A stretch of 64,000 nt of DNA from an uncultured Clostridia bacterium (GCA_944384845.1 CALWUZ010000212.1:567-64566), one strand, 5' to 3'. Counted from the first letter of the stretch, positions 9,213-26,880 are shown. Made by a program: numbers and translations. The notes: a model not told the origin generated them from the sequence alone.

Positions 9213-9229
9213 TTCTTAAATTATCCTCC

Positions 9230-10123: not shown

Positions 10124-12930
10124 CAGCTATCTGTCTCCAATCCGAATTCCCTTCGTTTCTTGGTAAGCTCTGCATTTATTGTCTGTGTATATTCATTTAC
10201 GGTCTCCCGAACATCGGCATCCTCATTGATAATTTTACGGAAAATATTGTTTATATGACGATTAAGAAAATAACCGCCGGGGACCTGTTCGATAGACATA
10301 GCATTTTCCCGCTGAACATTAAGCGTGCTAAGCGCCGCCGCAGACCAGGAGAGTCTGCCGAAAGCCTCTATATTGGCAGTTGCATATCTTCCGGGAATAC
10401 CCTGCTTATTCTCAATTGCCGCAGCATAGGCGTACTGAGCATCCGCGCCGGTAAACCATTTTACAAAGCTCCATGCCTGTTCCGGATTTTCGGTGGTATT
10501 CATTATCATTGCAGCAGTAGTAGTGCTCAGGGAAATATGTCTCACGCTTCCGTCCTCACGCCTTGTTCCCGGAACCGGATACATACTCCACAGTCCGCTT
10601 ATTTCAGGCGCCGACACCTCAAGTGTGTTAAATGTACTGAAATCCGCGATTCCTATCGGCATATCACCGCTTCGGAAGCGGTTAACAAAATTATAAGACA
10701 TAAGCAGTGAATAGTCAGAATATAGCTCTGTCCATTTTGTAAACGCTTCTATTGCCTCCTCCGTATTAATATCAACCGATCTTCCGTTATCCTTATAGAT
10801 GTTGCTTTGATTTTGAAACAGCAGTAACGCAAAACCATTGACCGTACCGCTGTCCGGATAGGCAAATTCCATATTATTCTGTTGCAAAACCGTAAGGCAG
10901 TTATATACGTCTTCCCAAGTTTCCGGAACTTCAAGTCCGATTTCGGTCAAGATATCATCTCTCACAAACATTACGTCGCATACCTGAGTGAGAGGTATAC
11001 CATATACGCCGCCGTCATACGTATACGGAATCATAGCCTGCGGATAAAATCTTGCGGCGACCTCGCTGTAATCCGGAAATTCCGAAAGGTCAAGAAGCGC
11101 TCCGCGGGCGGCAAAGTTCATAGGCATCCCCTCGTCGGCAAACAAGTATACATCCGGCTCTATACCGGCAACAGTTGCCTGCAAAATTCCTCCTGAAACC
11201 AATTTAAGGCTGACGCCTATATTACTTTCCGGAGTAAAATCATTGTCTGTCAGTTCTTTTATTATCTGATACTGGTCCCTGCCCAGAGTCAGCCAAACCT
11301 CTATCGCCTCACCGTCTCCGTAAACACTGCCTATCATTCCGTAATCCTCGGCAAATGATTTAAAGAAAAGCTGCGTTCCAAATAAAATGTTTTTAAAAAA
11401 GCCGGCTTCCTCTTTTACTGTATCAGCGTTTTTGGGCAGCACCTGAATGCAGTCAACGGTGAGCGGCTGCGAGGTACAGCTTTGAATCCAGTCGCTTAGT
11501 CCGGTCAGGTTACTGTTGAAAGTACTCAGATACTGCGGCAATGTTTCGGGGTACTCCAAAAACTCATTTAACTGTCTGATTATTTCATCAAGCTTTGCAG
11601 TTCCCTCACCGCTGCCGCCGTTTTGTATAAGAAGCCAATCGAAAAGCTCCTGCAAAACTTGTTTCTGCTCTTTAAAAATTTCTAATACATCAGGAAGATT
11701 TTTTTCTATCTGATAATCCCTGTATTTATCAGGAGTAGCACCTGTCACCATAATAATTCTGCGGTATGCCTCGTTAAGTCTGAATAAGGATTTCTGTGCA
11801 ACATTAAGCGCTTTCGCCTGCTCTCCAAGAGTCACCTCAAGCGTAATAGTATGATCGCCTTCCTCTAAAAAATAGAGATACGGATTTCCGTCCGCATCTG
11901 CAAGGCGAATCACCTGCCATCCGCTGCCGTACGGAAATTTAACTGATTCCATTTCACTGAAAGGCACTTCGCCGTCAATTAAAAGCCTGCGGTAGCTTGA
12001 AAGTCCGCTTGTAAAATTGTTTTTGAATCTGAACGCCAATGTATAATAACCGCTTTTTTCAGCGTGGAATTTCCACGAAACAGATTGTCCTTCAGCACTC
12101 CATCCGGAGCCGCCTAAACTGTTCCAAACCTGCAGGCCTTCAAAAACAGGATTGGTTATAGCTGAAGTTCGGTCGCAAAGCTCCGTAATCGAAGCGTTGG
12201 TGCGTATATATGGCTTTTCGGCCTCAATGGTAATAGCTTCAGCGTTATTTTCCGAACCTTCTGTATAATTTTTGCTTATCTCATTATAAGAAGCTTTCGG
12301 TTTATAGCAATAAAGCATTACCGATTTGAGTTCTATGCTCCCCTTTGCAGCGGTAATAGTTATATTATTTTCACCCTCGGCAAAATAAAAGCACAGCGGC
12401 TCTGTATGCAAACCCGAATTATCAGTAAGTACGGCTGACTGCCATTCATCGCTTTCATTCAGAGAAACAGTATACTCATTGCCGCGTTTGTCCTTTTCGG
12501 TATCTGCAGAAAGCCATGAACGCTTTAAAGTAAACTCCGCCGCCTCTCTGAAAGGACGCTCCCCGTTAATATCTATAGAGCAGGTACCGTCCCCGTCATT
12601 ATCTGACACTATCTTATATATCATTTTAACAGATGCCAGGCACTCATTTATATTTACGGCAAACGTAAAACTATCACCTTCGCTGATGACAACATTTTGC
12701 TCCGCAGTTATATCATCGCTTATATAAGCAACATCCTTATATCTTTCTATATAAGCGTCATATTCTACAGCAGAAGACGTACCTGCCATACGCTCGATTG
12801 CATCATTCAAATCCGGAAAAGCATCATAAGCTTCTTTATTTTTCTGAAAAACAGCAAAAACGGTTATTGCTATAACTGCAGCCAATACGGCGGCTGTCAC
12901 CGCTATAATTCTCTTTTTGTAATTAGCCAT
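10123..12930 (-). CDS. Giant (935 aa) membrane-anchored extracellular solute-binding protein with two N-terminal beta-sandwich (CBM-like) domains; cassette copy A
   Basis: GGAGG RBS and N-terminal TM IIAVTAAVLAAVIAITVFAVF. Two ~150-aa beta-rich segments (e.g. ITIEAEKPY...GWSAEGQSVSWKFHAEKSGYYTLAFRF...GDHTITLEV). The C-terminal ~420 aa has a family-1 SBP pattern (EVWLTLGRDQYQ..., ...GIPLTQ..., ...PVPG...). Paralog of 53200-55992. Confidence 0.75.
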   Translation of the reverse strand: MANYKKRIIAVTAAVLAAVIAITVFAVFQKNKEAYDAFPDLNDAIERMAGTSSAVEYDAYIERYKDVAYISDDITAEQNVVISEGDSFTFAVNINECLASVKMIYKIVSDNDGDGTCSIDINGERPFREAAEFTLKRSWLSADTEKDKRGNEYTVSLNESDEWQSAVLTDNSGLHTEPLCFYFAEGENNITITAAKGSIELKSVMLYCYKPKASYNEISKNYTEGSENNAEAITIEAEKPYIRTNASITELCDRTSAITNPVFEGLQVWNSLGGSGWSAEGQSVSWKFHAEKSGYYTLAFRFKNNFTSGLSSYRRLLIDGEVPFSEMESVKFPYGSGWQVIRLADADGNPYLYFLEEGDHTITLEVTLGEQAKALNVAQKSLFRLNEAYRRIIMVTGATPDKYRDYQIEKNLPDVLEIFKEQKQVLQELFDWLLIQNGGSGEGTAKLDEIIRQLNEFLEYPETLPQYLSTFNSNLTGLSDWIQSCTSQPLTVDCIQVLPKNADTVKEEAGFFKNILFGTQLFFKSFAEDYGMIGSVYGDGEAIEVWLTLGRDQYQIIKELTDNDFTPESNIGVSLKLVSGGILQATVAGIEPDVYLFADEGMPMNFAARGALLDLSEFPDYSEVAARFYPQAMIPYTYDGGVYGIPLTQVCDVMFVRDDILTEIGLEVPETWEDVYNCLTVLQQNNMEFAYPDSGTVNGFALLLFQNQSNIYKDNGRSVDINTEEAIEAFTKWTELYSDYSLLMSYNFVNRFRSGDMPIGIADFSTFNTLEVSAPEISGLWSMYPVPGTRREDGSVRHISLSTTTAAMIMNTTENPEQAWSFVKWFTGADAQYAYAAAIENKQGIPGRYATANIEAFGRLSWSAAALSTLNVQRENAMSIEQVPGGYFLNRHINNIFRKIINEDADVRETVNEYTQTINAELTKKRREFGLETDS

Positions 12931-12939: not shown

Positions 12940-13836
12940 TTATCCCACAAGTCCTGTCGTTTCTATGCTTTCAACAAGAAAACGTTTTGTAAACATAAAA
13001 AGAAGGAGCAAAGGCAGTATATACATTACAACACTTGTGTTTTTAAGAATCGCCCGGTAATAATAATCATTTTTGAGGTCTGTCAATTCAAACTGCATAT
13101 CTATAGTCGAAAGCTTTGTCCAGATAAACTCCGTATTAGGAAAAAATATTTCGGAATATGTAGGGTCTGTCCATTTCCATACAAATGCGAACATAAAGCA
13201 TGTAAAGAATACCGCCACCGCTCCCGGCAGCATTATTTTTGCGAAAACCTTAAACGTACCTGCTCCGTCGACCGCCGCAGCTTCCTCAAGCTCTTTCGGA
13301 TATCCTTTGAAAGACTGCCGCATAATATATATGATAAGTCCGTCCTTTAAACCCACTGCGGTAGCTGACAGTAAAAACATAGGAAGCGGGGTGGTAAGCA
13401 AATTCCAGTCAAACGGTCCGTAGCTTTGAAACTGAAAATACAGCGGAGCGAAATATATGCTGTACGGTACAAGCAGCGTAAGAATCACACAGCCGAACAA
13501 CAAATTACGAAAAGGAAATTTAAAACGCGCAAAGCCGTAGGCAACAAGAAGGCAGGATATCATTTCTATTAAACAAAGCGAAATATTAAGAGCAAGCGAT
13601 ATACCGATTGTTTTCCAATAATCAAGAAATATTGAAGCATCAACATAATTTTGAAGCGTAGGACTTTTCGGGATAAAACGTACAGCAGTATCATATATAT
13701 CTGAGCTTTGCATAAAGGATATAAGCAAGGTAATTATTAAAGGATAAATAATAATAAAGCTCAGACCGACCAATATCAAATAACGGAAAAAACCGCCTAA
13801 TATCCATATTGTTTTCTTTTTTGTTTCTAATTTCAT
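12940..13836 (-). CDS. Carbohydrate ABC transporter permease (MalG-type)
   Basis: Polytopic, with EAA loop LEEAAAVDGAGTFKVFAKIMLP. Paralog of 44840-45778. Confidence 0.85.
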   Translation of the reverse strand: MKLETKKKTIWILGGFFRYLILVGLSFIIIYPLIITLLISFMQSSDIYDTAVRFIPKSPTLQNYVDASIFLDYWKTIGISLALNISLCLIEMISCLLVAYGFARFKFPFRNLLFGCVILTLLVPYSIYFAPLYFQFQSYGPFDWNLLTTPLPMFLLSATAVGLKDGLIIYIMRQSFKGYPKELEEAAAVDGAGTFKVFAKIMLPGAVAVFFTCFMFAFVWKWTDPTYSEIFFPNTEFIWTKLSTIDMQFELTDLKNDYYYRAILKNTSVVMYILPLLLLFMFTKRFLVESIETTGLVG

Positions 13837-13849
13837 CTGTATTCCCTCT

Positions 13850-14764
13850 TTAGTTGTAATGCTTCATCAGTTGTTTTATTAATAATACGAAAAAGCATAA
13901 AACAGCAATTATTATAAAAAAGTATGTCCAAGCAAGAGATGCGGCATATCCGAACTGAAAGCTGGAAAAGTTATAGTCAGTGATAGTTTGCATAACGGGA
14001 TTTACATTATTGGAAAAAGCGTCTATCACAGTGTAAACAACATTTACAAGCGTTTGCGGCAGCACCATCGGAAAAGTTATTTTCCAAAAGCTTTCCCAGG
14101 CGGTTGCCCCCTCGATTTGCGAAGCCTCATAAAGAGACCTCGGTATTGCTTTTAAAGCAATTAAAAAAACAAGTATCTGTATCCCGGAAGAATTTATAAC
14201 CTCTAATATATTTGTAATAGCATATATTATGTACTCTATAAAACCGTTTGGCAGACCCATTCGCATGAAGAGGTCACCAACCAGTGAAGCATTGAAAAGA
14301 GAAGTGTCCTCGCCTGTCGCGGAAGCGGCATTAATTATTGTCCGCCGGATTATATCGTCGCTGATCAAATTCGGCATAATACCTGCGGAAACAATAACAG
14401 GAATAAAAAAAATAATCTGAAATACCGGCTGTCCCGGAAATTTACCGTTTAAAAAAACAGCCACAAGCATGCTGAAAATAAGAATTATAGGAACATTGAC
14501 CGTCATACTTGAAAGCGAATCCAGCAAAAGCTTACGGAAATCAGTATCAACCGTAAAAGCACGCTTATAATTTTCAATTCCCATAAATTCAAGCGAGACT
14601 TTTCCGTCAAATTTTAAATCATTGAAGCTGTAAATAAAAGACTGCATCATAGGGAAGAAAATAAATGCAAAAAAGCCGATTATGAAGGGCAGCACAAAAA
14701 TAAGACCCTTCAGTTCCCTTTTTCTTACAAGCCGACTTTGTTTCCAAAAATCAAAAAAATTCAT
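13850..14764 (-). CDS. Carbohydrate ABC transporter permease (MalF-type)
   Basis: Polytopic, with EAA loop LYEASQIEGATAWESFWKITFPM. Paralog of 45796-46689. Confidence 0.85.
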   Translation of the reverse strand: MNFFDFWKQSRLVRKRELKGLIFVLPFIIGFFAFIFFPMMQSFIYSFNDLKFDGKVSLEFMGIENYKRAFTVDTDFRKLLLDSLSSMTVNVPIILIFSMLVAVFLNGKFPGQPVFQIIFFIPVIVSAGIMPNLISDDIIRRTIINAASATGEDTSLFNASLVGDLFMRMGLPNGFIEYIIYAITNILEVINSSGIQILVFLIALKAIPRSLYEASQIEGATAWESFWKITFPMVLPQTLVNVVYTVIDAFSNNVNPVMQTITDYNFSSFQFGYAASLAWTYFFIIIAVLCFFVLLIKQLMKHYN

Positions 14765-14787
14765 TCATTTCTTCCTTTCCGTCATAT

Positions 14788-14815
14788 CTTCCCGCCGAAT
14801 TTTATCGGCGGGAAG
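14788..14815 (-). promoter_or_regulatory. Intercistronic 11-bp perfect stem-loop between the GH16 gene and the permease genes
   Basis: cttcccgccga (14788-14798), loop atttta, tcggcgggaag (14805-14815). No T-run follows on the coding (minus) strand. It sits between the stop at 14825 and the RBS/start at 14764. Confidence 0.5.
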
Positions 14816-14824
14816 ATTAAACAA

Positions 14825-15868
14825 TCACTTCTTAAGCGCGTGAACCTTTACCCAATCTGTTCTGAATTCCATCGGGAAGTCCTGCATTAAGGTCCTGCCT
14901 ACCCAGCTCTTGTCACCTTTATCCTCTTTTTTGGGGTTCATATGCATACAGGCCTGTAAAAGAACTACCATGTCCCCGCCGCGCTCTTTTCCTGCTCCTA
15001 TTATTCCGTCACCTTTATACACATGGGTAAGTCTGCCGTCATAATACCAATAAAGTGCATCCGGTTCCCACACCAAAGAAACGGTATGGTAACCCTCTCT
15101 TATGCTATGCATAGGAATTTCGCCTTTTCCCCGCTGAATATGATAGCTTCCCCAACCATGATAATGAAAGGTTGCAGTGCCGAAATCACCGAAAGCAGGA
15201 GAATACTCAATTATATCTATTTCACCGGCATGGTCCTTGCCGAACGAAGCATCGGATTCCGGATTACGGTTAAACATAATTTTTTCCGGCGTCAATACAT
15301 TCGAGCACAGCCAGAAAGCGCAGTTGCAGGCGCAGGGCGAATTTTTATATCCGGGAAATTTCATATGTGCCGAGAAGCAGCCGTATGTCTGCTGAAATGA
15401 TTTCGCAGTAGTAACTACATGACGAGGCTCATCAACCGTCATTCTAAGCACCATATCTCCGTTGTCTACAAAGCCTCCCTTATAGCTCCTGTATTCCCAG
15501 CCTTCTTCACCACCGCTCCACTTGTTATGATCAAAAGCTTCAAAATCATCGAAAAAAGACGGCTCGTTTCCGAAAGCTGTATTGAATTTTAAAGTATAGC
15601 TGTCATATCCGTCCCGTGATTTATCCATATAGTCATTAAGCTCAGCATGAACAGTTACCTCTCTGCCCTCCTGACGGACAAAGTAAGGAACTATTACCTC
15701 ATTGCCGTTAATTTTTATATCGCTGTCATCGGTATAAAGATAGAATAGCGGGTTACCGCAGTTTTCGATTACTCTTCCGCCGTACTCACAAAAAAATTCA
15801 TAAACAGCATCCATATCTGCCACTCCGGGATGCATTTCCTTAAGTCTGAGTCTGAAATTTTCTCCCAT
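14825..15868 (-). CDS. GH16-family glycoside hydrolase, no signal peptide (cytoplasmic)
   Basis: GH16 catalytic motif GEIDIIEY (E-x-D-x-x-E). N-terminal Ig-like segment HPGVADMDAVYEFF...VIVPYFVRQEGREVTV is shared with the two other GH16 paralogs. ATG at 15868 with an AGGTGA RBS is preferred over the GTG at 15877. Confidence 0.8.
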   Translation of the reverse strand: MGENFRLRLKEMHPGVADMDAVYEFFCEYGGRVIENCGNPLFYLYTDDSDIKINGNEVIVPYFVRQEGREVTVHAELNDYMDKSRDGYDSYTLKFNTAFGNEPSFFDDFEAFDHNKWSGGEEGWEYRSYKGGFVDNGDMVLRMTVDEPRHVVTTAKSFQQTYGCFSAHMKFPGYKNSPCACNCAFWLCSNVLTPEKIMFNRNPESDASFGKDHAGEIDIIEYSPAFGDFGTATFHYHGWGSYHIQRGKGEIPMHSIREGYHTVSLVWEPDALYWYYDGRLTHVYKGDGIIGAGKERGGDMVVLLQACMHMNPKKEDKGDKSWVGRTLMQDFPMEFRTDWVKVHALKK

Positions 15869-15889
15869 TAATATCACCTTTTAAAATAA

Positions 15890-17128
15890 CTATTCTTTTT
15901 CGAGTCCGTAAACCCTTACATAATCCACACGGGATTCATTAGGAAATTCATCCGGATTATAAGGACCGCCCCAATCACTGTCCTCTTCTGTATTTGTATG
16001 CTGCAGCAGAATCTGCATAGGTCCTGCATTTGGTCCTACTCCTTCGCCTGTGTAGGTCCAAATCAAATCTTCGTCAATATACCAATATATGGCTGTGCTG
16101 GTCCATACACAGGAATAAATATGGTATTCACCCCGAAGTGTTTGTTCAACCAAAGGCTCGCTGCCTTCGCTGGCATGATAGTCAGACCAGCCGTTCCAAT
16201 GAAGCGTACAGGAAGTTTTATGATCGCCCCAGGTCGGAAAATATTCCACTATATCGATTTCGCCGCCGCTTTGCGAAGGACGCTGCGGATTTTTAAGATA
16301 CGTCACGCCTTCCTCTGTGCAAAGCCAAAATGCAACGTTTGAAAGTCCGCTTGAAGGCATTTTAATCCTTGCGGAAAAAGAACCGTAAGCCTGATTAAAC
16401 GTACCGGTAGTAGAAAGCTCTATGCTTTTTGTACCATGATCGGCGTACATTACAAGCTCGCCGTCCTCACAGTAAAGTTCCTCTATCGGCATCCTGTTAT
16501 CATACCACTCGTCTGACCAGACAGAAGCGTCAAGCGTATCAAAGTTATCAAGAAATGTCGGCTGTTCGGTAAACTGAACGTCAAAATCAAAAGTAAAGCT
16601 GCCGGTACGGTTTGGATGTTCTCTGTTATACATAGAAACCGTCACCGTTTTACCCGAGGAACGTACCGAATACGGTATTGTAACTGTATTGCCGTCTATT
16701 TTAACATTGCTGTTATCACAGGAAAGAACCATATTTTCTTTGTCAAGTGAAATATTTCTTCTGTCCATAGCTATCATTTGGTACTTGGCGTCAAGCTCTG
16801 CAACACCGGGATGCTCAACCTCGGGCCGGAAAATATAATAATTTTTGCCTATATCCGCAGCAGTAATTTTATCCAGGACAGTTTCTGTGGCACCGGAGCC
16901 TGATTCACTTGGATCAAAAACATAATCATTTTCATTGGTATTATTTTGAGAGCTGTTATCCTCAGCATTATCCGACGAGGTTTCCTCTTCGGACGAAGGT
17001 TCTCTCTGAATATATACTATTTTTTTCTTTCCGTTTGACTCGGTCTTTTTCTCTTCACCGCAAGCGCAAAGTGTTACCATAAGCAAAGCTAAAAATATGG
17101 CTGAAAACCTCTTTAATTTCTTTTCCAT
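15890..17128 (-). CDS. GH16-family glycoside hydrolase, lipoprotein
   Basis: Lipobox LMVTLCAC, S/E/N-rich linker, the same HPGVAELDAKY Ig-like segment, and catalytic motif GGEIDIVEY. Confidence 0.8.
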   Translation of the reverse strand: MEKKLKRFSAIFLALLMVTLCACGEEKKTESNGKKKIVYIQREPSSEEETSSDNAEDNSSQNNTNENDYVFDPSESGSGATETVLDKITAADIGKNYYIFRPEVEHPGVAELDAKYQMIAMDRRNISLDKENMVLSCDNSNVKIDGNTVTIPYSVRSSGKTVTVSMYNREHPNRTGSFTFDFDVQFTEQPTFLDNFDTLDASVWSDEWYDNRMPIEELYCEDGELVMYADHGTKSIELSTTGTFNQAYGSFSARIKMPSSGLSNVAFWLCTEEGVTYLKNPQRPSQSGGEIDIVEYFPTWGDHKTSCTLHWNGWSDYHASEGSEPLVEQTLRGEYHIYSCVWTSTAIYWYIDEDLIWTYTGEGVGPNAGPMQILLQHTNTEEDSDWGGPYNPDEFPNESRVDYVRVYGLEKE

Positions 17129-17154
17129 TTTTTCAACTCCTTTAAAAACGAAGT

Positions 17155-18648
17155 TTATTTCCAGAAATCCTCTATCTGAGCATTAATCTGCTGACTGATA
17201 CTTGAAAGAGCGGACGCTGCGGTAGTCTCGCCGTAAGCTACTTTCTTTATATTTTCTGTAACGGTACCCATATAATAGCCGTAGTCAAAAACATATTTTC
17301 CGGTCTGAAGATTGGTAAGATACTTTTCAATTGTAGCTTTGACGCTGGGATCAGGCATAGTGTCATAAAGAGTAGCACTGACATTAAGCACACTTTCATT
17401 TCTGTATTCGCCCAAAATATCCCAGAACAGGGCGACATCGTTGGGATTCTCCACGCCTTTTGGAATAGATACTGAAGTCACAAGACTTTCAACCAGGTCG
17501 TTGCTGCTGTCGGGACCGTGAGGAAACAGGCACATACCTATTTCAAAGTCTGCATTGTTACAAACCGTTCCGAACTCAAAGTAATCTATTACGGTCATTG
17601 CAGCCTTTCCCGAATAGAAAACCTGACGGCCGGAATCCCAGCCGGAAACTGAGCTGTCATACAAATATCCTTTATTTGAAACCCAGCTTGCAAGCTGATT
17701 AAGCGCGTTTGTAGCCTTGGAATTGTCAAGGGAATATGTAAAATTAGCTGTATCTCCCTGACGTGTAAGCACTTTTGCACCGTTTGCCCAAAGCATCTGT
17801 CTGCCGAACTGTTCTATAGAATACATCGGTACAAGACCATACCGCGTGATATTATTCCCCTCTACAGCCGCCGCCTTGCTCATAATTTCGGTAAGCTTTG
17901 CCCAGGTAAGCTTACCGTTTTTCTGAAGGGTATAAAGATCCTCCCAGTTATTCCTTTCAAACATAGTTTTGTTATACATCAAAACGCTTCTGATCTGCGA
18001 GCTGCGGGAAATGGCGTAAACATGACCGTCAAGCGTATTCTCCGCCGTACATGCCTTATCCCAGCAATCGTCGGAAAGATCAAAATTAGAAAGCGTGTCA
18101 AGAGCGATAAGATAACCCTTTCTTGCGAGATTGAGCGGCGGCTGTTCCGCTTTTGTAACAAAAAGATCGGCTATTGGCGCACCCGAAAGAATAGAAGTAT
18201 AAAGCGCTTTATAATCGCTCATTTTGCGCTCAACAAATTTACAGTTGAGCATTTGCTCTACTTCTCTTATAATTTTACCGTTCTCACTGTTGCGGTCTGT
18301 CGGATCCCAATATGCAATATAGGTTATTGTCCTGCCCTTTAAATCCTTTATTCTGCCCGGGTCTATTTCATTTGTCTGACCGGTAGTAGTCGAACCGATA
18401 TTTACCGTATCTGAATTTCCGCTCTGACCGCTGCCGCCGGAACTTCCGCCGGAGCCGCCGGAACTCCCGCCCGAACCGCTGTTTGAAGCTCCGTCACCAG
18501 TGTTGTCCGTCGGTGCATCTATATATACATATTCAATATCTTCACTGCTTGAAGATGCGGTATCAGAATTGCTTCTGCAGCCCGAAAACACAGCTGAAAG
18601 TGACAGAGCAAGACACAAACAAATAACTTTGTTTAATTTTTTGTTCAT
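17155..18648 (-). CDS. ABC transporter solute-binding lipoprotein (carbohydrate family)
   Basis: Lipobox AVFSGC, Gly/Ser linker, ~420-aa SBP-like body. Paralog of 43281-44786. The GGAGGAA RBS overlaps the upstream stop. Confidence 0.8.
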   Translation of the reverse strand: MNKKLNKVICLCLALSLSAVFSGCRSNSDTASSSSEDIEYVYIDAPTDNTGDGASNSGSGGSSGGSGGSSGGSGQSGNSDTVNIGSTTTGQTNEIDPGRIKDLKGRTITYIAYWDPTDRNSENGKIIREVEQMLNCKFVERKMSDYKALYTSILSGAPIADLFVTKAEQPPLNLARKGYLIALDTLSNFDLSDDCWDKACTAENTLDGHVYAISRSSQIRSVLMYNKTMFERNNWEDLYTLQKNGKLTWAKLTEIMSKAAAVEGNNITRYGLVPMYSIEQFGRQMLWANGAKVLTRQGDTANFTYSLDNSKATNALNQLASWVSNKGYLYDSSVSGWDSGRQVFYSGKAAMTVIDYFEFGTVCNNADFEIGMCLFPHGPDSSNDLVESLVTSVSIPKGVENPNDVALFWDILGEYRNESVLNVSATLYDTMPDPSVKATIEKYLTNLQTGKYVFDYGYYMGTVTENIKKVAYGETTAASALSSISQQINAQIEDFWK

Positions 18649-18650: not shown

Positions 18651-21242
18651 TTAATTCCTCCTATTTATCCTTTTCCGGTTTGCAAGAACTACAAGGACTC
18701 CGAAGCCTGACAGTATTGCCATGAATATATACGTCATCGGCATACTGTCATCACCGGTATCCGGTAGGCTGTTTCCGCTGTCGGCAACGGAATCCTGACC
18801 GCTTTTCTCCTCAGTAAGCTGTCTTATATTAAACTGTGTCAATAAGTAACCCCGCCGGTAAACAACCATACTCATATCTTCGGTCAATACCGTTTCATCG
18901 TCCTCAATAAACTTGCCGTTATAAAAATCAACATTAGTTTCATCGGTATCAAATGTGAGCGCCGCCAATATTTCCCATATCATAGTATTTTCAGGTATAT
19001 AAAGCGTCAGATTTTCCTTGTCAAGCTTCGCGTTGATGATGCTGCTGTCAAGCTCAAGGGGCAAATCTCTTTCCGGCTCGGGTTCGGGCTCTACAATGGG
19101 TTCGGGATCGGGAACATCGGCAAGATTTGAATAAAATCTGAACGACGAGATAAGAAAATAATCACAGAACAAAGAGGTTTGCGTACCTTTGATGGTTACA
19201 CGCAGAATCTGATCCATATTAAGCCCCGCATCAGCAAAATATGTAAACGGTATTCTTACCTGCATATATCCGTCGGGACGTGCCTTTGATTTATCGTATT
19301 TTACCTTAAATGTAGCAAAAGTACGGTTCGCATGCCCTGCGGCCTCTACCGAGAACGGTACCTCTATCCCGTCCGTATCGCAGTAAATATAAAATTCGAG
19401 ATATCCGGTATCTATGTATTCTGCAGCGTCAATTCTATCGCCGTAAAATGTTGTAAAATACAGCTGCCCCATTCTATCCTCCTGCGGGATAAGTATATAC
19501 GGCGCCATATTTTGGAATGAATAATACCATGCCAAGTCCCAGGTAACTGTCGAAATCCAGTCTTCACACCAGGGATCAAGAGTACCCTCTGTATCCCCTA
19601 TAACTCCAAGGAGGGTATTAGTCTCGCTTTTCGTATATCCGCTCATATCGAATATCTGCGACCATGCCTCGTCTACCGTTCCGTCAATCTCCTTGTTGAA
19701 AACAAAAGTTTCACCTACATAAATGGTGTCACCTATCTCACGATTATCAATATATACCCGGAAAAAAACAAAATTCGCCGTTTGGGCAGCAGCAATAGCC
19801 TTGAAAGGAATTTTCACAAGCGTGAACTCTTCGGTATCGGGAATTGTAACCTCGTAGATTTTGCCTTCGCTTATACCGATTTTAACAGTTCTGTCCTCTG
19901 ATTCGGTAACAAGCTTTATGCTTGTGTAAAAGTACGCGGTATCATAATATCTTTCAAGGGTAACATTTACATTTTTGCTGCCGTAAATATTTATTGTACC
20001 GGCGTTATTCGTAATATCAAATTTATATGCCGACTCGTCGCCTCCGTCTGCAAGAGACCAGGAATACGGTCTTGAGGCAGGTCCGTTGTACCACGGATCG
20101 GTTGCCAAAGTCGCCGGATGACATTTCCACAGGAAAGCAAGCTCTCTTTCCTCTTCATAATTTATCTTTGCCGTAACTTTAACGTCCCCCGCCGGCATAT
20201 TGAACTGATACTCGCTGTTTCTTGTGACAACATCTGCGGTAATAACCGTTCCGTCACCGGTGGTTGCGGTAACCGCTTCAATATTATAATTCATTGCCGG
20301 TCTTACCTTTACGGTTACGGAATCTGAAGAATTAATATCTTCCGAGCCCTCAGCCAATGTACGTGAAAGAGCAATATCGCAGTTTTCGGGATAATCAACC
20401 TTCAGCCTATAGGCTCCGGAATAGCTTTTGCCGCTTAATGAAGTAAATTTATCATATGAAGTCAGAAGACTGCAATAATCCTTTCTTCCGGGACTGCCGT
20501 TTACATATATTCCCTGTGTGAAATTAGCTATATCGGCAATTCCGCTGACGGAGTTTAAAGCCATATTTATCTTATTTTTGTCTCCGTTTTTCAAAACAAG
20601 AATCAAATTTTTAATTTCAACCGTTTGTGTGCCGTTAAAGCCGCCGGAAGCACTTGATAAATTATAAGTAATGAAACCGGAATACCATGACGTGTCAAAG
20701 GACGGCGCGCTTATTTTTGTAAGCGGATATTCCGTCCAGTTTTCAGCGTCACTGACATTTACACTTGCCAATTCGGCAATCTTCGGGTCGTAAGCCTGCG
20801 CGGCGCTGATATTAAGCGTAGCATCCTCCGGTAAATCCTCGGCGGCAGTAACTCTGTATTCAAAGCTTATATAAAGATACGGCGCGATCGCATTAAGCAC
20901 GTTCCGGCTGTTTATCCAGCCAAAGCCGGAGGTCTTATCGTTAATCGAGCCTTTAGCCGCGGCATAATTTTCTCCGCCGTTTCCGGTTTCGGAAAATTCC
21001 GAGCCGAAATAAGCTCCGGCGTCATCGCATTTCTTGTAAACATTGTACTTTGCTTCCCCGTAACCACTCGTAAACAGGGCGTCAACCTTGCCTTCATTAT
21101 CAGACAAAACATTATCCGGATTCAGTTCCCAGATAATATTGTCCGTTCCTGTCGCCGCCTCAGTAAACGAGGATATAGGGAGTGCTGAAAATACGATTAC
21201 CGCCGCCGTAAAAGCCGCAGCCAATCCTTTTATTCTTTTCAT
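18651..21242 (-). CDS. Sortase-anchored (LPXTG) multi-module cell-surface protein, function unknown
   Basis: Signal peptide ...SSFTEAAT. One copy of the unassigned ~200-aa module (GFGWINSRNVLNAIAPYLYISFEYRV ... WYSGFITYNLSSASGGFNGTQTVEIKNL). PEPEPE linker. C-terminal LPDTG + hydrophobic span + RKRINRRN. Confidence 0.75.
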   Translation of the reverse strand: MKRIKGLAAAFTAAVIVFSALPISSFTEAATGTDNIIWELNPDNVLSDNEGKVDALFTSGYGEAKYNVYKKCDDAGAYFGSEFSETGNGGENYAAAKGSINDKTSGFGWINSRNVLNAIAPYLYISFEYRVTAAEDLPEDATLNISAAQAYDPKIAELASVNVSDAENWTEYPLTKISAPSFDTSWYSGFITYNLSSASGGFNGTQTVEIKNLILVLKNGDKNKINMALNSVSGIADIANFTQGIYVNGSPGRKDYCSLLTSYDKFTSLSGKSYSGAYRLKVDYPENCDIALSRTLAEGSEDINSSDSVTVKVRPAMNYNIEAVTATTGDGTVITADVVTRNSEYQFNMPAGDVKVTAKINYEEERELAFLWKCHPATLATDPWYNGPASRPYSWSLADGGDESAYKFDITNNAGTINIYGSKNVNVTLERYYDTAYFYTSIKLVTESEDRTVKIGISEGKIYEVTIPDTEEFTLVKIPFKAIAAAQTANFVFFRVYIDNREIGDTIYVGETFVFNKEIDGTVDEAWSQIFDMSGYTKSETNTLLGVIGDTEGTLDPWCEDWISTVTWDLAWYYSFQNMAPYILIPQEDRMGQLYFTTFYGDRIDAAEYIDTGYLEFYIYCDTDGIEVPFSVEAAGHANRTFATFKVKYDKSKARPDGYMQVRIPFTYFADAGLNMDQILRVTIKGTQTSLFCDYFLISSFRFYSNLADVPDPEPIVEPEPEPERDLPLELDSSIINAKLDKENLTLYIPENTMIWEILAALTFDTDETNVDFYNGKFIEDDETVLTEDMSMVVYRRGYLLTQFNIRQLTEEKSGQDSVADSGNSLPDTGDDSMPMTYIFMAILSGFGVLVVLANRKRINRRN
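18753..18767 (-). other. LPDTG sortase recognition motif
   Basis: Reverse complement of 18753-18767 is CTA CCG GAT ACC GGT = L-P-D-T-G. It is followed by 25 largely hydrophobic residues and a basic tail. Confidence 0.75.
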
Positions 21243-21262
21243 AATTTCCTCCTTTTATATCT

Positions 21263-23848
21263 CTATTCAGATAAACCATATACCCTGAGCCAATCGGTTT
21301 TCATCGAATCCGGGAAATCATCTGCGTTGAAGTCACCTCCCCAACTGCTGTCCTCGCTATTACCGTGAAGGCTTAAAATAATCTGCATTCCATCACTGTG
21401 ATCAGAAATTCCCTCTCCGTTATAAATCCAATAAAGCTTGCCGTCAAGATAAAAATATATTGCATCCTTCATCCAGACCGCCGAATAAATATGGTAATCA
21501 TTTCCTAAGTCCGTTCCTGCGTTCAACTGGTCGTTTCCGCTGTAGCGATGATGACCTGCAGCCGAACCGTACCAATGAACCGTAGCCGACCATTTTGCCC
21601 CTCCGGTCCAAGTCGGAAAATACTCAACGATGTCTATTTCTCCTCCCGAAATACTCGGATTCAGAGGATTCCTTCTGTAGATTTTGCCTGTATTTGAATA
21701 AAGCCAGAAGGCTCCGTTCACAAGCGCTTTTTCCGGCATTTTTATTCTTGCCGAGAAGCTGCCGTATGCCTGTTCAAATTTATTTTTGGTTGAAAGTCCC
21801 ACCGTCTGACCTATCTGTGATGTATAAATCAGGCTTCCGTCTTCGATTTTATATTCTCCGTCTCCATAGAAAACCGACCAAATATCGGTATTAAGCGTAT
21901 TAAAATCGTCCTCTAAAGTAGGCTCTTCAGTATATTTTACAAATTCAAAATCATATCTCCCGAAAACGGCGGCGTCGGTCCTGCTCGTAACCGTCACGGT
22001 AAGCGTTTCATCCGAGGCTCGAACCGAATAGGGTACGGTTAAGGTATAGCCGTCCACCGCTACAGCGGTACTGTCCGTTGCGACAATCACATCTTCAGGT
22101 GAAATCTGCGCTCCGTTTGCATCTGTAACCTCAAGCTCATAATAAGCGTCCATTTCCGCAACGCCGGGATGATTCACAGCAACGGAAACCTTAATCGGAT
22201 CATTTTCATAAGGGGAAATCTCCCTGTTTAGAATAGTCTTCTCCGCTGCGGCTAATTCCAGACCTGTTACTTTATCGTCACCGTTAATATCAAGGCGTTT
22301 TATTATAATGTCTGAAAGCCATTGCTTGCCGGAAGTATGCTTTTTTATTCTTATAATGTCAAGAACATCCGCCTTACCGTCATCATTTGCATCATGCGCC
22401 GTGTTGGGGAGGCTGTTAATAAGAATATTACAGTAGCTGTAGCTTCCGCTTTCGTCACGGTCTTTTACTACGTTAAGTGAAAAGTTCTCTAACCCCGAAA
22501 TACCGCTGACCGAGCTGAGTGAGTCGTTTATAGCAAGACGGTCGCAGTCGCGAAGCTCGATTCGGATATTTCTCAAATCCACCGTCTGGCTTCCCGAAAA
22601 TCCTCCTGAATAGCTGTATATATTGAATGTAAAAAAGCCGCTGTACCAGGAGCCGGTAAATTTTCCGTTGATCGGAGAGAGCGTATATTCAGTCCATTCC
22701 GACGCCGCTCCTTTTACCGAGCCGAAGCTGCAAACCTTGCCATACGCCGTAGCGCCTCCGAAATAGATATATGCGTCGTCAGGAAGTTCCTCCGTGCTTG
22801 TGAACCGATACTCAAAGCTTATGTACATATACGGCGCCAAAGCGTTTAACAAAGCCCGGCTCTCAAGCCACCCGTAGCCCTCTGAATTAAAATCAAGTCC
22901 GCTTTTTAATACCGCATTGCACTCATTGCCGCCCTTCCCGTTCACATTCATTACTGTGCGGTAATAGCTGCCTTCAGAGCCGTTTACTGCAACGGTGTCA
23001 TACATGGCGGGGAGATAGCCGTTCAGAACATATCCCGTAACATTTTGACCGTTCTGTGCACCAAGCCTTTCTGGTGATGCATACCATATTGAATTATGAC
23101 TGGTAAATTTCGGGTCGGATTGAACAATATCGTCAAATTTCCAGAGGCTTCCGGCTTCTTCAAGCGCGGAATTTATTGAAGCTTCATCATCAGAATTTAA
23201 TGAAACGCGGAAATTACGCAAATCTATCAGATATATTCCGTTAAGTCCTCCCGAATAACTGTAAATGTTCAGCCCTAAAAAACCGGAATACCAGTTGTTA
23301 AAATCATTCCCGTTTAAATCAGCACTATATGATTTCCATTCAGAAGCATTTGCCATACCTACAGAGCAAAGCGCTGTGGCAGCACCGTTATAGGAATGAG
23401 CCGCTTTCAGATAAATTCTTCCGTCGGGCGGCACGCTCCCCTGCAATACGTTTACCCTGTATTCAAAGCTGACATTCATAAAAGGTTTTATTGCTTTTAA
23501 TACAGTTATATCCTCAAGCCAGCCGTAGCCTCTCATATTATTGTCAAGCCCTGAAATCAAAACCGTGTTGAAATCGTCGCCCCCGCGTCCGGTCACCGTC
23601 ATTTCGGTGCGGTAATAGCTTCCGGAGTCGTTCTTTTTAACTACATCAAATCTGGGGCTGTAAACAGCTTCGGCAGCCATAGGCGCTTTAACGCTCTCTC
23701 CGGGCTCGGCCGACAAATTATCCGGATCCGCCCGCCATATCGTATAGCAAATATTGTTTTCCGATGCCGCGCCGACAGTATGAGCAGCCGGCAGCATACT
23801 AAAAATCAAGACAAAGCTCAAGCATATCGTCAAAAAGCGCATTTTCAT
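21263..23848 (-). CDS. Secreted protein: 2x unassigned ~200-aa module + internal dockerin + Ig-like segment + C-terminal GH16 catalytic domain
   Basis: Signal peptide. Module copies at aa ~32-232 and ~252-452 (GYGWLE...FEYR / WYSGF...YSYSGG). Dockerin at aa 486-541. HPGVAEMDAYY segment. GGEIDIVEY at aa 735-743. Confidence 0.8.
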   Translation of the reverse strand: MKMRFLTICLSFVLIFSMLPAAHTVGAASENNICYTIWRADPDNLSAEPGESVKAPMAAEAVYSPRFDVVKKNDSGSYYRTEMTVTGRGGDDFNTVLISGLDNNMRGYGWLEDITVLKAIKPFMNVSFEYRVNVLQGSVPPDGRIYLKAAHSYNGAATALCSVGMANASEWKSYSADLNGNDFNNWYSGFLGLNIYSYSGGLNGIYLIDLRNFRVSLNSDDEASINSALEEAGSLWKFDDIVQSDPKFTSHNSIWYASPERLGAQNGQNVTGYVLNGYLPAMYDTVAVNGSEGSYYRTVMNVNGKGGNECNAVLKSGLDFNSEGYGWLESRALLNALAPYMYISFEYRFTSTEELPDDAYIYFGGATAYGKVCSFGSVKGAASEWTEYTLSPINGKFTGSWYSGFFTFNIYSYSGGFSGSQTVDLRNIRIELRDCDRLAINDSLSSVSGISGLENFSLNVVKDRDESGSYSYCNILINSLPNTAHDANDDGKADVLDIIRIKKHTSGKQWLSDIIIKRLDINGDDKVTGLELAAAEKTILNREISPYENDPIKVSVAVNHPGVAEMDAYYELEVTDANGAQISPEDVIVATDSTAVAVDGYTLTVPYSVRASDETLTVTVTSRTDAAVFGRYDFEFVKYTEEPTLEDDFNTLNTDIWSVFYGDGEYKIEDGSLIYTSQIGQTVGLSTKNKFEQAYGSFSARIKMPEKALVNGAFWLYSNTGKIYRRNPLNPSISGGEIDIVEYFPTWTGGAKWSATVHWYGSAAGHHRYSGNDQLNAGTDLGNDYHIYSAVWMKDAIYFYLDGKLYWIYNGEGISDHSDGMQIILSLHGNSEDSSWGGDFNADDFPDSMKTDWLRVYGLSE
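22226..22393 (-). other. Dockerin module (two Ca-binding-loop repeats), internal position
   Basis: DANDDGKADVLDIIRIKK ... DINGDDKVTGLELAAAEKTIL fits the duplicated D-x-N/D-x-D-G-x-x-x-x-x-D dockerin pattern. Confidence 0.7.
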
Positions 23849-23946
23849 TTACTTTTCCTCTTCTTAATTTCAGATTCCGGCGTTTTGAAATATTTCATTC
23901 CGCAGCTTCTAATCAACAAAACCGTTGTTATAAGAAAAAATAACCG

Positions 23947-23987
23947 GCGAGGAATCTCGTAGGTCAATCTTTGCTGAGATTCCCCGC
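23947..23987 (-). terminator. Possible terminator between the first and second surface-protein genes
   Basis: 12-bp stem with one mismatch (23976-23987 gagattccccgc / 23947-23958 gcgaggaatctc), 17-nt loop. A T-run on the minus strand begins ~7 nt after the stem (A-run 23935-23940 on plus). The geometry is not ideal. Confidence 0.35.
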
Positions 23988-24017
23988 TTTCTCTGAAACA
24001 TATACTATTATTTATAA

Positions 24018-25715
24018 TTATTTGCTAAGCAAAGCTTTTTTCATTAACACAATGTCAGCGGCGTCCAAAAAGCCGTCGTCATTTGCGTCCGCCCGCTTAA
24101 TCATCATATCCGGCAAATATATCAGCCACGAATCATACTTCTTAACACGAATCAAGTCCTTAACCGTAACTGAGCCGTCATCATCAACATCAAACTCAGC
24201 ACCCGATGCCGCCGATACTAACAATGAATAATAATCTTTAATGCCGTTTACATCGTTTTCAAGCTCCACACCCTTGGTAAAGCCCTCAATATCGTCTATA
24301 CCTTCAATCATAGATAGATCCTTGTTGAGATAAACCCTGTCAGCAGCCTTCAGCTCAAATCTTAAATCTCTTATATCAATTCTTTGTGTTCCGCTGAATG
24401 ACTGCTGCCACACATAAAGATTCAGCGCTATATCTGTATTGTACCAACGATTATTCTGTGTATTCAAAAGCTTAAGCTCGTACACGTTCCACTGCCCCGA
24501 CTGTGTAATTGAAGCACCCGCCTGCCAGCAGCGATTATAACCGTTAATGCCGTTTACATAAAGATAGGGCGTTCCGGACGGAATATTACCGTTAAAACGG
24601 TACTGAAAACCCAAATATATGTACTTTGATACCGCCTCAACAACATCCGCATTGTCAAGCCAGCCAAAGCCGGGAGTTTCTGATGATATTCCGGACTTGA
24701 AAATAGTGCTTGCCTCATCGCCGCCGGAGCCTGTAACTGTCATAGTTGTGCGGTAGTATACACCGTCTGCATCGCAGCACTTAACCGTTCTGTAATCCGT
24801 TTTATACGCAAGCTCCGAATCTGACGGCTTATCAGCAGTAACGTCGTTTCCGTTGGAGGCTTCCGCCCTGTCCGGATTTGCATACCAGACAACACTTGTA
24901 TCGGTACTGTTTTTATCAGGATTTTTAAGATCTTCATACGCTTCGTTCACGAGATAAGGCGCAATCAGCTTGTCAAATGTAAATTCAGTGCCCTCAAGCG
25001 CAGCATTTATAGCGTCACGGCTGCTTTCCTTAACAGTAAGCTTTATATTTCGCAGCTCGGTCACCACGGTAACGTCTCCGAGAGCTTTTCCGGTGTCGTT
25101 CCATCCCAATTCAGCTTTAAATGACAGAAAGCCGTTATAAAAATTTTTTATTGAATCAGGTGTTGCGGCAGCAGTTTTCCAGACGCCAAACTCAGTTACC
25201 GCCGCCCAAAGCCACTGAGAAGCAATGCCGTATTCCATTGCGCCGCTTATATAAAGATCAATCCGATTTACCGCAGCGCCGGTTTGGGTAATACGGTAAT
25301 CGACACTGACATCTATTAACCCTGCCAGCGCATTTAAAACAGCCGCATTTCCTATCCAGCTCATAGTCCACTCTGTGCCGAGATAATTTGTGCCTTTTTT
25401 ATTATTATCCACTCCGCTCTTTGCATTGGAGGCTCCTCCGTACAGACTGTTTCCTTCCTTATAGTTTTGTGTAAAGGAATAGTACCAGTCCCCGTCTTCA
25501 AGTCCTGAATAAACAGTCTGGCGACTGGCAGGCAAGCCTAAAGATGACAAAGCTGTAACATCCGTACCGGGCTCACCGTAAACCGAAGGATCAGCCATAA
25601 AAACAGTATAGACCTTATCGCTGTCCTCCGCCGAAACAAATTCTGATAGCGGAAAACATCCGATCAGCATTATAATACTTAACGCTACAGACAGAGTTGT
25701 TTTCATTTTTTTCAC
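24018..25715 (-). CDS. Secreted protein: 2x unassigned ~200-aa module + C-terminal dockerin
   Basis: Signal peptide. A diverged module copy at aa ~35-245 and a clearer one at aa ~275-470 (PGFGWLDNADVVEAVSKYIYLGFQYRF ... WYNTDIALNLYVWQQSFSGTQRIDIRDL). C-terminal dockerin DVDDDGSVTVKDLIRVKK...DANDDGFLDAADIVLMKKALL (24021-24194). The start could be the GTG at 25715 or the ATG at 25706. Confidence 0.75.
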   Translation of the reverse strand: MKKMKTTLSVALSIIMLIGCFPLSEFVSAEDSDKVYTVFMADPSVYGEPGTDVTALSSLGLPASRQTVYSGLEDGDWYYSFTQNYKEGNSLYGGASNAKSGVDNNKKGTNYLGTEWTMSWIGNAAVLNALAGLIDVSVDYRITQTGAAVNRIDLYISGAMEYGIASQWLWAAVTEFGVWKTAAATPDSIKNFYNGFLSFKAELGWNDTGKALGDVTVVTELRNIKLTVKESSRDAINAALEGTEFTFDKLIAPYLVNEAYEDLKNPDKNSTDTSVVWYANPDRAEASNGNDVTADKPSDSELAYKTDYRTVKCCDADGVYYRTTMTVTGSGGDEASTIFKSGISSETPGFGWLDNADVVEAVSKYIYLGFQYRFNGNIPSGTPYLYVNGINGYNRCWQAGASITQSGQWNVYELKLLNTQNNRWYNTDIALNLYVWQQSFSGTQRIDIRDLRFELKAADRVYLNKDLSMIEGIDDIEGFTKGVELENDVNGIKDYYSLLVSAASGAEFDVDDDGSVTVKDLIRVKKYDSWLIYLPDMMIKRADANDDGFLDAADIVLMKKALLSK

Positions 25716-25809: not shown

Positions 25810-25838
25810 TTGACAAATCAATAAGTTCAGCCTATAAT
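25810..25838 (+). promoter_or_regulatory. Consensus sigma-A-type promoter facing the AraC regulator gene
   Basis: TTGACA (25810-25815), 17-nt spacer, TATAAT (25833-25838): a perfect match to both hexamers, ~200 nt upstream of the ATG at 26047. Confidence 0.6.
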
Positions 25839-26046: not shown

Positions 26047-26880
26047 ATGGCTCTTTACAGCTACGCTTATTCCTACAGCCACGATGAATGTGAATTTGTC
26101 ACGAAAAAATATTTTCAAATAAACAACTGCGGTGCATTAAAAACAGACAAATTTATGACATCGATCCGTCCGCCGCGGAACGATTACATGCTTATATATC
26201 ATTATGCCGGAAAAGGCTGGACAGAGATTAACGGTAAGCAGCTGAATACATATCCCGGTGATGTAGTATACCTCAAACCCGGCGCACCTCTGCATTTTGC
26301 CCTTGAACAAAATGCAATGCATTTTTGGATTCACTTCACCGGCAGTGCAGTAGATGATATGTTCAAAGAGTGCGGCATTGCGGAAACAGGAAAATATTCA
26401 ACTGTTGCCTCCAATGATTTATGGGAAATATTAACTGACATATATATACATCAATCTATTCCGAGCACCTCTATGCAGCTTCAGGCCAAAAGCTTTTTCT
26501 TTCAATTTTTAAGTTTATTAGCAGAATTTCTAACTCCGGATCAAACGGGAAACAACGTCATCCGAGAAAAGAAGATATATCCTGCACTTAAAGAAATGCA
26601 AATTAACTTTGACAAGAATCATAAGATTGAATACTACGCCAATCTGTGTGATATAAGCCTTTCAAGCTTTCAACACATTTTCACTAAAATTACGGGAATT
26701 ACACCGCAAAAATATCTCACTACCATAAGAATGGAAACAGCTAAAAAAATGCTAAGCTCAGGTAATATTTCAATTAAAGACATTGCAGCGCGCGTTGGCT
26801 ATGAGGATCAGCTTTATTTTAGCCGCATCTTCAAAAAAACAGTAGGAGTTTCTCCAAGTGAATACTCAAAAAACAAATAA
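26047..26880 (+). CDS. AraC-family transcriptional regulator (cupin-like sensor + HTH)
   Basis: AAGGAG RBS. The C-terminal ~100 aa shows the AraC HTH pattern (...YYANLCDISLSSFQHIFTKITGITPQKYLTTIRMETAKKML...IKDIAARVGYEDQLYFSRIFKKTVGVSPSEY). Divergent to train 1. Confidence 0.85.
   Translation: MALYSYAYSYSHDECEFVTKKYFQINNCGALKTDKFMTSIRPPRNDYMLIYHYAGKGWTEINGKQLNTYPGDVVYLKPGAPLHFALEQNAMHFWIHFTGSAVDDMFKECGIAETGKYSTVASNDLWEILTDIYIHQSIPSTSMQLQAKSFFFQFLSLLAEFLTPDQTGNNVIREKKIYPALKEMQINFDKNHKIEYYANLCDISLSSFQHIFTKITGITPQKYLTTIRMETAKKMLSSGNISIKDIAARVGYEDQLYFSRIFKKTVGVSPSEYSKNK

Follow-up and report, generated by a model that had tools for sequence, protein, structure and literature searches.

Non-catalytic, dockerin-bearing glycan-binding proteins are known from the multi-enzyme complexes of Ruminococcus, examples being R. 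bromii Sas6, which contains the carbohydrate-binding modules (CBMs) CBM26 and CBM74, and R. flavefaciens CttA. The subject of this work is a module of about 200 residues that occurs five times in three adjacent surface proteins, here termed A, B, and C, encoded in a stretch of 64,000 nucleotides from an uncultured Clostridia bacterium (GCA_944384845.1 CALWUZ010000212.1:567-64566; hereafter, the window). Protein C is built along the lines of Sas6 and CttA: behind a signal peptide it carries two differing putative binding modules and then ends in a dockerin, and it has no enzyme. Protein A parallels sortase-anchored surface binding proteins. The modules of the window, however, show no sequence relationship to CBM26, CBM74, or the modules of CttA. 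No PDB sequence match connects the module with CBM75-80 of R. flavefaciens or with other families that have solved structures.

Another point of reference is the Limousia mucinolysome, in which dockerins are carried by non-cellulolytic glycoside hydrolases (GHs) of gut Oscillospirales (PMC12997984). The two systems come from related lineages of gut Clostridia that are rarely or never cultured, and both have dockerin-tagged GHs for complex non-cellulosic glycans as well as a sortase-anchored surface protein (PMC12997984). A further parallel is that members of the module family at large are fused to, or encoded near, a sialidase, GH20, and GH35. The two systems differ in that the enzymes of the window are mainly divergent GH16. 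The mucinolysome, the description of which does not mention this module (PMC12997984), offers by analogy a plausible biological frame for the module proteins.

At the level of fold, the most similar described domains are CBM4, CBM9, CBM16, and CBM22, which belong to the same β-jelly-roll class and supply the top Foldseek neighbours of the predicted module structure (1k42, 2y6j, 3p6b, 3k4z, and 1dyo). Like them, the module is appended, often in tandem, to GHs and dockerin-bearing proteins. Unlike them, with which it has no significant sequence similarity, it is 30-50 residues longer and possesses a conserved internal helix (W76...L83.A85..P88-Y89) and a C-terminal helix. Weak neighbours of the same topology class also include MAM domains, Fbs1, and the PP2 phloem lectin (8a28, E 3e-5; 1umi; 7yaq). 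Fbs1 and PP2 bind glycans, and MAM domains mediate protein-protein contacts; all three are eukaryotic, reach template-modelling (TM) scores of at most 0.35-0.42, and lack sequence similarity to the module. In our opinion, this non-catalytic β-jelly-roll module of about 200-215 residues probably acts as a carbohydrate-binding, substrate-targeting module.

Homology and subfamilies of the five copies

A sequence-only reading of the window had placed five copies of about 200 residues in three adjacent proteins and had listed the motifs G(F/Y)GW, SFEYR, and WYSGF as shared by them. The envelopes of a profile hidden Markov model (HMM) fall within a few codons of those placements, and an alignment of the five segments (A1, B1, B2, C1, and C2), roughly 200 columns long, has 15 positions without variation, some of them in the listed motifs. 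In pairwise BLASTP comparisons with an effective database size of 1e8, identities among the copies range from 25 to 43% and E-values from 1e-44 to 1e-3. Thus, B2 is 43% identical to B1 (E 8e-44), 42% to A1 (E 2e-44), 34% to C2 (E 1e-35), and 29% to C1 (E 1e-9). The weakest reported pair is A1 with C1 (E 1e-3), and only the C1/C2 pair falls below BLASTP reporting, C1 and C2 each matching other copies; every copy matches at least three others. Given these identities and E-values, the homology of the five copies is far beyond chance. When all six reading frames of the window were scanned with the five-copy HMM, no sixth copy was found; the best remaining segment has E 0.8.

Clustering of 83 copies from the wider family yields at least four old subfamilies. 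Copies A1, B1, B2, and C2 belong to the main "SFEYR" subfamily and C1 to another, which refines the sequence-only reading. C1-type copies always lie N-terminal of SFEYR-type copies, for example in relatives P0002, P0004, P0005, P0009, P0017, and P0022. Position-specific copies of such ancient divergence are the pattern known from proteins with several CBMs of complementary specificity.

A conserved segment of about 35 residues follows only the last module of each window protein (A, 20433-20546, aa 233-270; B, 22394-22501, aa 450-485; C, 24210-24305, aa 471-502). Its pattern is G-I-x-x-I-x-x-F-T-x-G ... G-x-(K/D)-D-Y-(Y/F/C)-S-L-L, and it recurs family-wide, with the consensus FT..........G..DYF..L in the family alignment. 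The linker between modules reads G-(S/T)-x-x-(T/K)-F-(D/E)-x-L-(I/V) instead.

Sequence family and distribution

The module had been described as unassigned, and this description holds: no sequence family of Pfam-A (2025 copy), NCBIfam (2026), or PDB (2026) matches it even at E ≤ 10. The five copies have no Pfam-A match at that level, the module regions have none in NCBIfam, and the best PDB chain for profiles of 5 and 64 sequences, a cyanophage protein unrelated to the module, has E 0.02; nor do full-length A and C have a PDB match in their module regions. When 64 members were scanned singly against Pfam, 22 noise-level matches appeared, the best being CBM_4_9 at E 0.005, sub-threshold and in one member. 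The gathering threshold of that family (PF02018) is reached neither by the five window copies nor by any of the 64 members. No paper describing the module was found in the literature. Being in none of Pfam, NCBIfam, and PDB, the module family is, as judged by sequence comparison, previously unclassified.

The search that had been proposed as a check, with an HMM of the five copies, was performed with HMMER against 1.84 billion representative proteins and produced 45 clusters at the threshold of E ≤ 1e-3, 37 of them at E ≤ 1e-10. A re-scan of the relatives finds about 100 copies with sharp HMM boundaries, arranged one to five in tandem per protein: among 44 relatives, 14 have one copy, 14 have two, 8 have three, 6 have four, and 2 have five. 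The first copy begins at residue 26-44, right after the hydrophobic signal peptide, in 35 of the 44.

The same relatives carry Dockerin_1 (18 of 44), Flg_new_2, i.e., the InlB B-repeat (15 of 44), GH16 (11 of 44), and a CBM30-like domain that reaches E 1e-5 (4 of 44). One relative each has a BNR sialidase with Laminin_G (P0035, where the module is C-terminal), CE2_N with a GDSL esterase (P0011, where the modules are C-terminal of the enzyme), a phosphodiesterase/sulfatase-superfamily domain behind the dockerin (P0017), and a metallo-β-lactamase-fold domain (P0005). Several relatives end in a C-terminal transmembrane or LPXTG anchor in place of a dockerin. The fusions to GH16, the CE2/GDSL esterase, and the BNR sialidase place the module within carbohydrate-active enzymes, as the CAZy definition of a CBM demands.

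The window proteins themselves recur, identical or nearly so, on a few dozen metagenome contigs of ENA, Logan, and NCBI, and an identical protein C is found on five metagenome contigs with the same neighbours. With protein B as the query, no relative was found in 185,579 reference genomes. The degenerate DNA pattern W...L.A..PY....[FY][EQD]YR, which recovers three of the five window copies, matched a single reference genome, a metagenome-assembled genome labelled Acutalibacteraceae bacterium, in which a module-dockerin-GH16 gene adjoins a gene homologous to the AraC-family regulator gene of the window; the pattern had no match in JGI metagenomes. The neighbours of module-bearing genes at other loci include GH78, GH16, a GH38-like gene, and AraC (L003); GH35, two GH20 genes, and GH106 (L004); and AraC in a sporulating Firmicute background with DpaA and SpoIID (L005). 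A homologous AraC gene adjoins module-bearing genes in L003, L005, and L006. The family, with its many diverged copies, is thus real and under selection, yet rare and phylogenetically narrow.

Conserved residues and predicted structure

Of all positions in the 64 copies, two alone approach invariance, W76 (91%) and W134 (98%), and no other reaches 90%. Next in conservation are G153 (88%), R97 (80%), and W150 (77%, with F in 14%), together with D173 (75%, with E in 11%) and R175 (75%, with K in 17%); Y44/Y45, P8, A85, and Y89 are also conserved, as are D185, I189, N190, and L193 of the C-terminal helix. No acidic, His, or Tyr residue is invariant. Since the two tryptophans are the only positions at or above 90% and none of the acidic residues is invariant, a binding or structural module fits better than an enzyme. 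Polar and hydrophobic positions take turns along the strands S-F-E-Y-R and V-D-I-R-N, the polar ones being conserved; from this periodicity, R97, D173, and R175 should face the same side, away from the core.

With the five window copies as the alignment, AlphaFold2 predicts A1 as a β-sandwich with a predicted local distance difference test score (pLDDT) of 83.7. Copy B2, modelled with the 64-sequence alignment, reaches pLDDT 95.6 and a predicted TM-score (pTM) of 0.90 (model m266fef4db683). The B2 model, which covers the module alone, has ten β-strands. Strands 4 and 5 are separated by a short helix and a helix of 10 residues (residues 75-89), and residues 183-194 form a helix at the C-terminus. 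This last helix, with the pattern D-R-x-x-I-N-x-A-L (of the 64 members, 89% have the N and 84% the L), corresponds to the short "I(N)..L" segment that the sequence-only reading had seen behind each copy. The segment is real and belongs to the module, because AlphaFold2 confidently models the helix as part of it. The predicted single-copy fold is that of a discrete, independently folding domain, as CAZy expects of a CBM.

Structure prediction followed by Foldseek, which had also been suggested, gives a confident β-jelly-roll with weak, superfamily-level neighbours only: PDB matches have TM-scores of 0.27-0.49, E ≥ 2e-5, and identities of 6-18%. The CBMs among them are CBM4-2, the CBM4 modules of CelK and CbhA, CBM22, CBM27, CBM30, CBM16, and an alginate-binding CBM. 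Other neighbours are the MAM domain, the N-terminal jelly-roll of GH51, the sugar-binding domain of Fbs1, the PP2 lectin, SGBP-B proteins, Cry toxin domain III, clostridial neurotoxin HC, and the ephrin-receptor ligand-binding domain (LBD). Among viral structures, the module most resembles domains of phage tail fibres, CenC-type CBMs among them. No cohesin is among the top 50 Foldseek PDB hits of either model. Close superposition (TM > 0.5) with CBM4 or CBM22 is not reached, the best TM-scores being 0.38-0.49 with root-mean-square deviations of 6-7 Å. The model can thus be placed only in the broad galactose-binding-like jelly-roll class, home of most β-sandwich CBMs, in which it has no close structural relative.

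Architecture of the module proteins

The translations of all three proteins start with a typical hydrophobic signal peptide. Display by dockerin or sortase and the presence of GH16 beside the modules, both proposed in the sequence-only reading, are borne out by domain matches above the respective cut-offs (Table 1). The dockerins of proteins B and C contain EF-hand-like sub-hits, as expected of a family with duplicated Ca-binding loops, and that of protein C has weak PDB matches to Clostridium dockerins. Protein A ends in LPDTG, a hydrophobic stretch, and the basic tail RKRINRRN, the arrangement of a sortase substrate. The Pfam scan of protein C finds no catalytic domain.

Table 1. Coordinates of the module proteins, their domains, and neighbouring genes in the window
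Feature	Position	Strand	Description
Protein C, 565 aa	24018-25715	-	Open reading frame; signal peptide, C1, C2, ~35-aa tail segment, C-terminal type I dockerin
Module C1	24981-25610	-	aa 36-245 of protein C; HMM envelope; divergent subfamily
Module C2	24300-24893	-	aa 275-472 of protein C; HMM envelope; main SFEYR subfamily
Type I dockerin of protein C	24027-24194	-	aa 508-563; Pfam PF00404, E 2e-7, 31.5 bits (cut-off 22.9)
Protein B, 861 aa	21263-23848	-	Open reading frame; signal peptide, B1, B2, tail segment, dockerin, Ig-like, GH16
Module B1	23153-23746	-	aa 35-232 of protein B; HMM envelope
Module B2	22502-23095	-	aa 252-449 of protein B; HMM envelope; copy modelled with AlphaFold2
Type I dockerin of protein B	22238-22396	-	aa 485-537; PF00404, 30.3 bits (cut-off 22.9)
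GH16 catalytic domain of protein B	21290-21862	-	aa 663-853; PF00722, 48.5 bits (cut-off 22)
Protein A, 863 aa	18651-21242	-	Open reading frame; signal peptide, A1, tail segment, InlB-B-repeat-like spacer, further regions, LPXTG
Module A1	20541-21140	-	aa 35-234 of protein A; HMM envelope
LPXTG cell-wall sorting signal of protein A	18669-18770	-	NCBIfam TIGR01167, 18.1 bits (cut-off 15.9)
AraC-family regulator	26047-26880	+	Pfam AraC_binding and HTH_18; divergent from the genes of proteins A-C
Lipoprotein solute-binding protein	17155-18648	-	Pfam SBP_bac_1
Lipoprotein GH16	15890-17128	-	Pfam Glyco_hydro_16
GH16 without signal peptide	14825-15877	-	Pfam Glyco_hydro_16
Two ABC permeases	13850-14764, 12940-13836	-	Pfam BPD_transp_1

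The GH16 domain of protein B shows the catalytic motif E-I-D-I-V-E (E-x-D-x-x-E) characteristic of GH16, and its nearest solved structures are GH16 laminarinases at E 1e-9 only. The GH16 domains of the window generally are nearest to laminarinase-type GH16_3 structures, only at E 1e-9 to 1e-13, and mucin O-glycanase GH16 structures match them even more weakly. Protein B (21863-22200, aa 550-662) and the GH16 proteins at 14825-15877 and 15890-17128 also have in common an N-terminal β-rich domain of about 100 residues, located ahead of GH16 and beginning with H-P-G-V-A-(E/D)-(M/L)-D-A. It belongs to no Pfam family, has a weak Gmad2 Ig-like match (E 0.028), and precedes GH16 in relatives P0002, P0004, and P0012 as well.

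Protein A has no PDB sequence relative at E ≤ 1, and its architecture is also found in relatives P0014, P0015, and P0021. Two more β-rich regions lie at aa 385-705 (19128-20090), one of them weakly CBM30-like (E 0.017). As candidates for divergent module copies, aa 385-531 and 535-705 were ruled out by hhalign, with a probability below 1%. A small conserved C-terminal domain (D-L-P-L-E-L-D-S-S-I-I-N-A-K-L-D-K-E-N...) stands ahead of the LPXTG signal at 18780-19100. The β-rich regions and this small domain are common to relatives P0007, P0014, P0015, and P0021.

The signal peptide of protein C includes a lipobox-like L-I-G-C (25656-25667, aa 17-20) and, downstream, a VSA|ED signal-peptidase-I site. 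Relatives P0003 and P0004 carry the same (L/I)-I-G-C stretch. Dockerin proteins of this kind may be either lipidated or simply secreted.

Operon context and other features of the window

The genes at 12940-18648 lie downstream of the protein A gene on the same strand, with intergenic gaps of 2-60 bp. Read from this gene order, the genes of proteins A-C are the first of a Gram-positive operon for glycan utilisation, carried by an uncultured, Acutalibacteraceae-like Clostridium of the gut, and the divergent AraC-family regulator likely controls it. A scan for promoters and terminators, which was at chance level overall, gave a promoter-like minus-strand site matching at 10 of 12 positions upstream of the protein C gene (25944-25916) and a plus-strand site matching at 12 of 12 upstream of the AraC gene (25810-25838). 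No cohesin is seen in the window. The region has no plasmid match, and the window contains no Rfam family and no tRNA.

Outside the operon, two paralogous five-gene cassettes are located on the minus strand at 3676-12930 and 46694-55992. Each encodes a fusion protein of about 930 residues with a C-terminal solute-binding domain, two ABC permeases, a membrane protein with NHL repeats and Yip1, and a DUF5696 protein. The fusions are 38% identical and the DUF5696 proteins 27% identical (E 1e-70), and one cassette is followed by a GH20C-type hexosaminidase at 1815-3743; the pair looks like a duplicated glycan-uptake system. Three adjacent GH5 genes (Cellulase, PF00150), one with a product of 1171 aa, are found at 33913-39611 on the minus strand, and proteins of 813 and 501 aa without a Pfam match are encoded upstream of them. 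In the stretch 58000-64000, the G+C content increases from about 0.42 to 0.49-0.55, and the GC skew changes sign in the last 6 kb. This shift coincides with a switch to plus-strand genes, among the products of which are flavodoxin-like proteins, an ABC exporter, and a membrane protein that resembles lipases.

Discussion

Carbohydrate binding is the reading we prefer because the module is predicted to be a jelly-roll with CBM neighbours, occurs in tandem copies, and is fused to glycan-acting enzymes, namely GH16, sialidase, and CE2 esterase, and to a phosphodiesterase/sulfatase-superfamily domain, with dockerins and anchors co-occurring. The near-invariant tryptophans, CBM_4_9 as the best sub-threshold Pfam match, and the position-fixed subfamilies argue in the same direction. 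So do the GH35, GH20, GH106, GH78, GH16, and GH38-like genes nearby at other loci and the packed operon of the window, with its solute-binding protein, permeases, and two more GH16 genes. The glycan-binding role proposed in the sequence-only reading is thus plausible, with indirect support.

Of the picture that follows, the homologous repeats, secretion signals, dockerins, sorting signal, GH16 domain, predicted fold, family rarity, and fusion partners are results, whereas binding to carbohydrate, the identity of the ligand, and the way in which the proteins share the work are inferred. Sortase would fix protein A covalently to the cell wall, displaying one module far out, and the dockerins of proteins B and C would bind a cohesin scaffold encoded elsewhere. 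Tandem, non-identical modules, in which the C-terminal helix D-R-x-x-I-N-x-A-L leads into the next copy, may provide a multivalent grip on the polysaccharide and thereby keep protein B, with its GH16 endo-enzyme, and also the cell on the substrate. The lipoprotein GH16 would then trim the oligosaccharides released, and the lipoprotein solute-binding protein would capture them; after import through the ABC permeases, the GH16 that lacks a signal peptide would complete their breakdown.

Several points weigh against this reading. The fold matches are weak, and protein binders such as MAM, the ephrin-receptor LBD, and the receptor-binding domains of toxins belong to the same superfamily. Neither the internal helix (residues 80-89) nor the C-terminal one is typical of CBM4 or CBM22. 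The nearest solved structures of the GH16 enzymes, laminarinases, match only at the modest E-values given above and are a weak guide to the substrate. Finally, a very recent CAZy family that has neither a Pfam model nor a structure may already include the module.

The module might instead be an inert structural spacer or "X-module", in which rigid β-sandwiches joined by helices extend the proteins or stabilise neighbouring domains and bind no ligand. The tandem arrays of one to five copies joined by a conserved helix and linker, the frequent alternation with InlB-B-repeat (Flg_new_2) spacer domains, and a conservation made up mostly of W, Y, I, and L, possible core residues, are all compatible with such a role. 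We nevertheless regard it as unlikely: the usual spacers are small Ig or FN3 folds, not jelly-rolls of 200 residues, and the copies occupy the N-terminal tip, remote from the anchor, and not the stretch that separates it from the functional domains. Moreover, the old position-specific subfamilies and the semi-conserved R97, D173, and R175, predicted to point outward, suggest a functional surface, and proteins that consist of modules and a dockerin only (protein C and P0026) would be left without a function. It is hardly probable at all that the module itself is a small catalytic jelly-roll, for instance a novel lyase or hydrolase resembling polysaccharide lyase (PL) family PL7 or GH11, GH12, or GH16. 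A jelly-roll of about 200 residues with semi-conserved R97, D173, R175, and Y44/Y45 would suit such an enzyme, and some family proteins (protein C and P0008) have no recognised catalytic domain. However, no acidic, His, or Tyr residue is invariant, D173 and R97 being kept in only 75 and 80% of copies; up to five tandem copies per protein is unusual for catalytic domains; binding modules, and no catalytic domains of PLs or GHs, make up the fold neighbours; and most family proteins already have a separate catalytic domain.

The module could also bind a protein, either as a highly divergent cohesin-like or scaffold module that catches dockerins or as an adhesin for a host or microbial surface protein. 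The layout of protein A, with an N-terminal module and C-terminal LPXTG, is like that of cSca5 of the Limousia mucinolysome (PMC12997984), dockerins co-occur in 18 of the 44 relatives, and the MAM, ephrin-receptor LBD, and clostridial neurotoxin HC neighbours do bind proteins. Pfam Cohesin (PF00963), however, is unmatched even at E ≤ 10, and no cohesin is among the top 50 Foldseek hits though the PDB holds many; on this evidence from Pfam and fold, identity with cohesin is rejected. At about 200 residues and with two helices, the module also exceeds a cohesin of about 140 residues, and among its fusion partners are a sialidase and a CE2 esterase, neither of them seen to carry a dockerin. A protein-binding role seems to us quite improbable.

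Returning to the carbohydrate-binding reading, the partners found in the wider family, i.e., sialidase, GH20, GH35, rhamnosidases, esterase, and phosphodiesterase, point to complex host or microbial glycans, not cellulose. An extension of this reading, to us nearly as likely as not, is that the module constitutes a new CBM family restricted to a narrow clade of uncultured gut Clostridia (Acutalibacteraceae and relatives). The ordered, non-identical subfamilies would then serve dockerin-assembled and sortase-anchored proteins in the multivalent recognition of a complex non-cellulosic glycan, either mucin-type from the host or microbial/fungal, and the range of mucinolysome-type complexes would be extended by a binding module of their own.

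The fold class and the probable role are familiar, and the sequence family is absent from Pfam, NCBIfam, and PDB. The surprise is limited, since new CBM families appear regularly in the literature, and the ecological weight seems small, given how few clusters (45 among 1.84 billion representative proteins) and reference genomes (one) contain the family and that the motif has no match in JGI metagenomes. New CBMs serve as glycan probes and enzyme-targeting tags. If binding is shown, the module would define a new CBM family, divided into four or more old subfamilies, would help to trace what a divergent GH16 clade acts on, and would be a marker for dockerin-based complexes that degrade non-cellulosic glycans in poorly known gut Clostridia.

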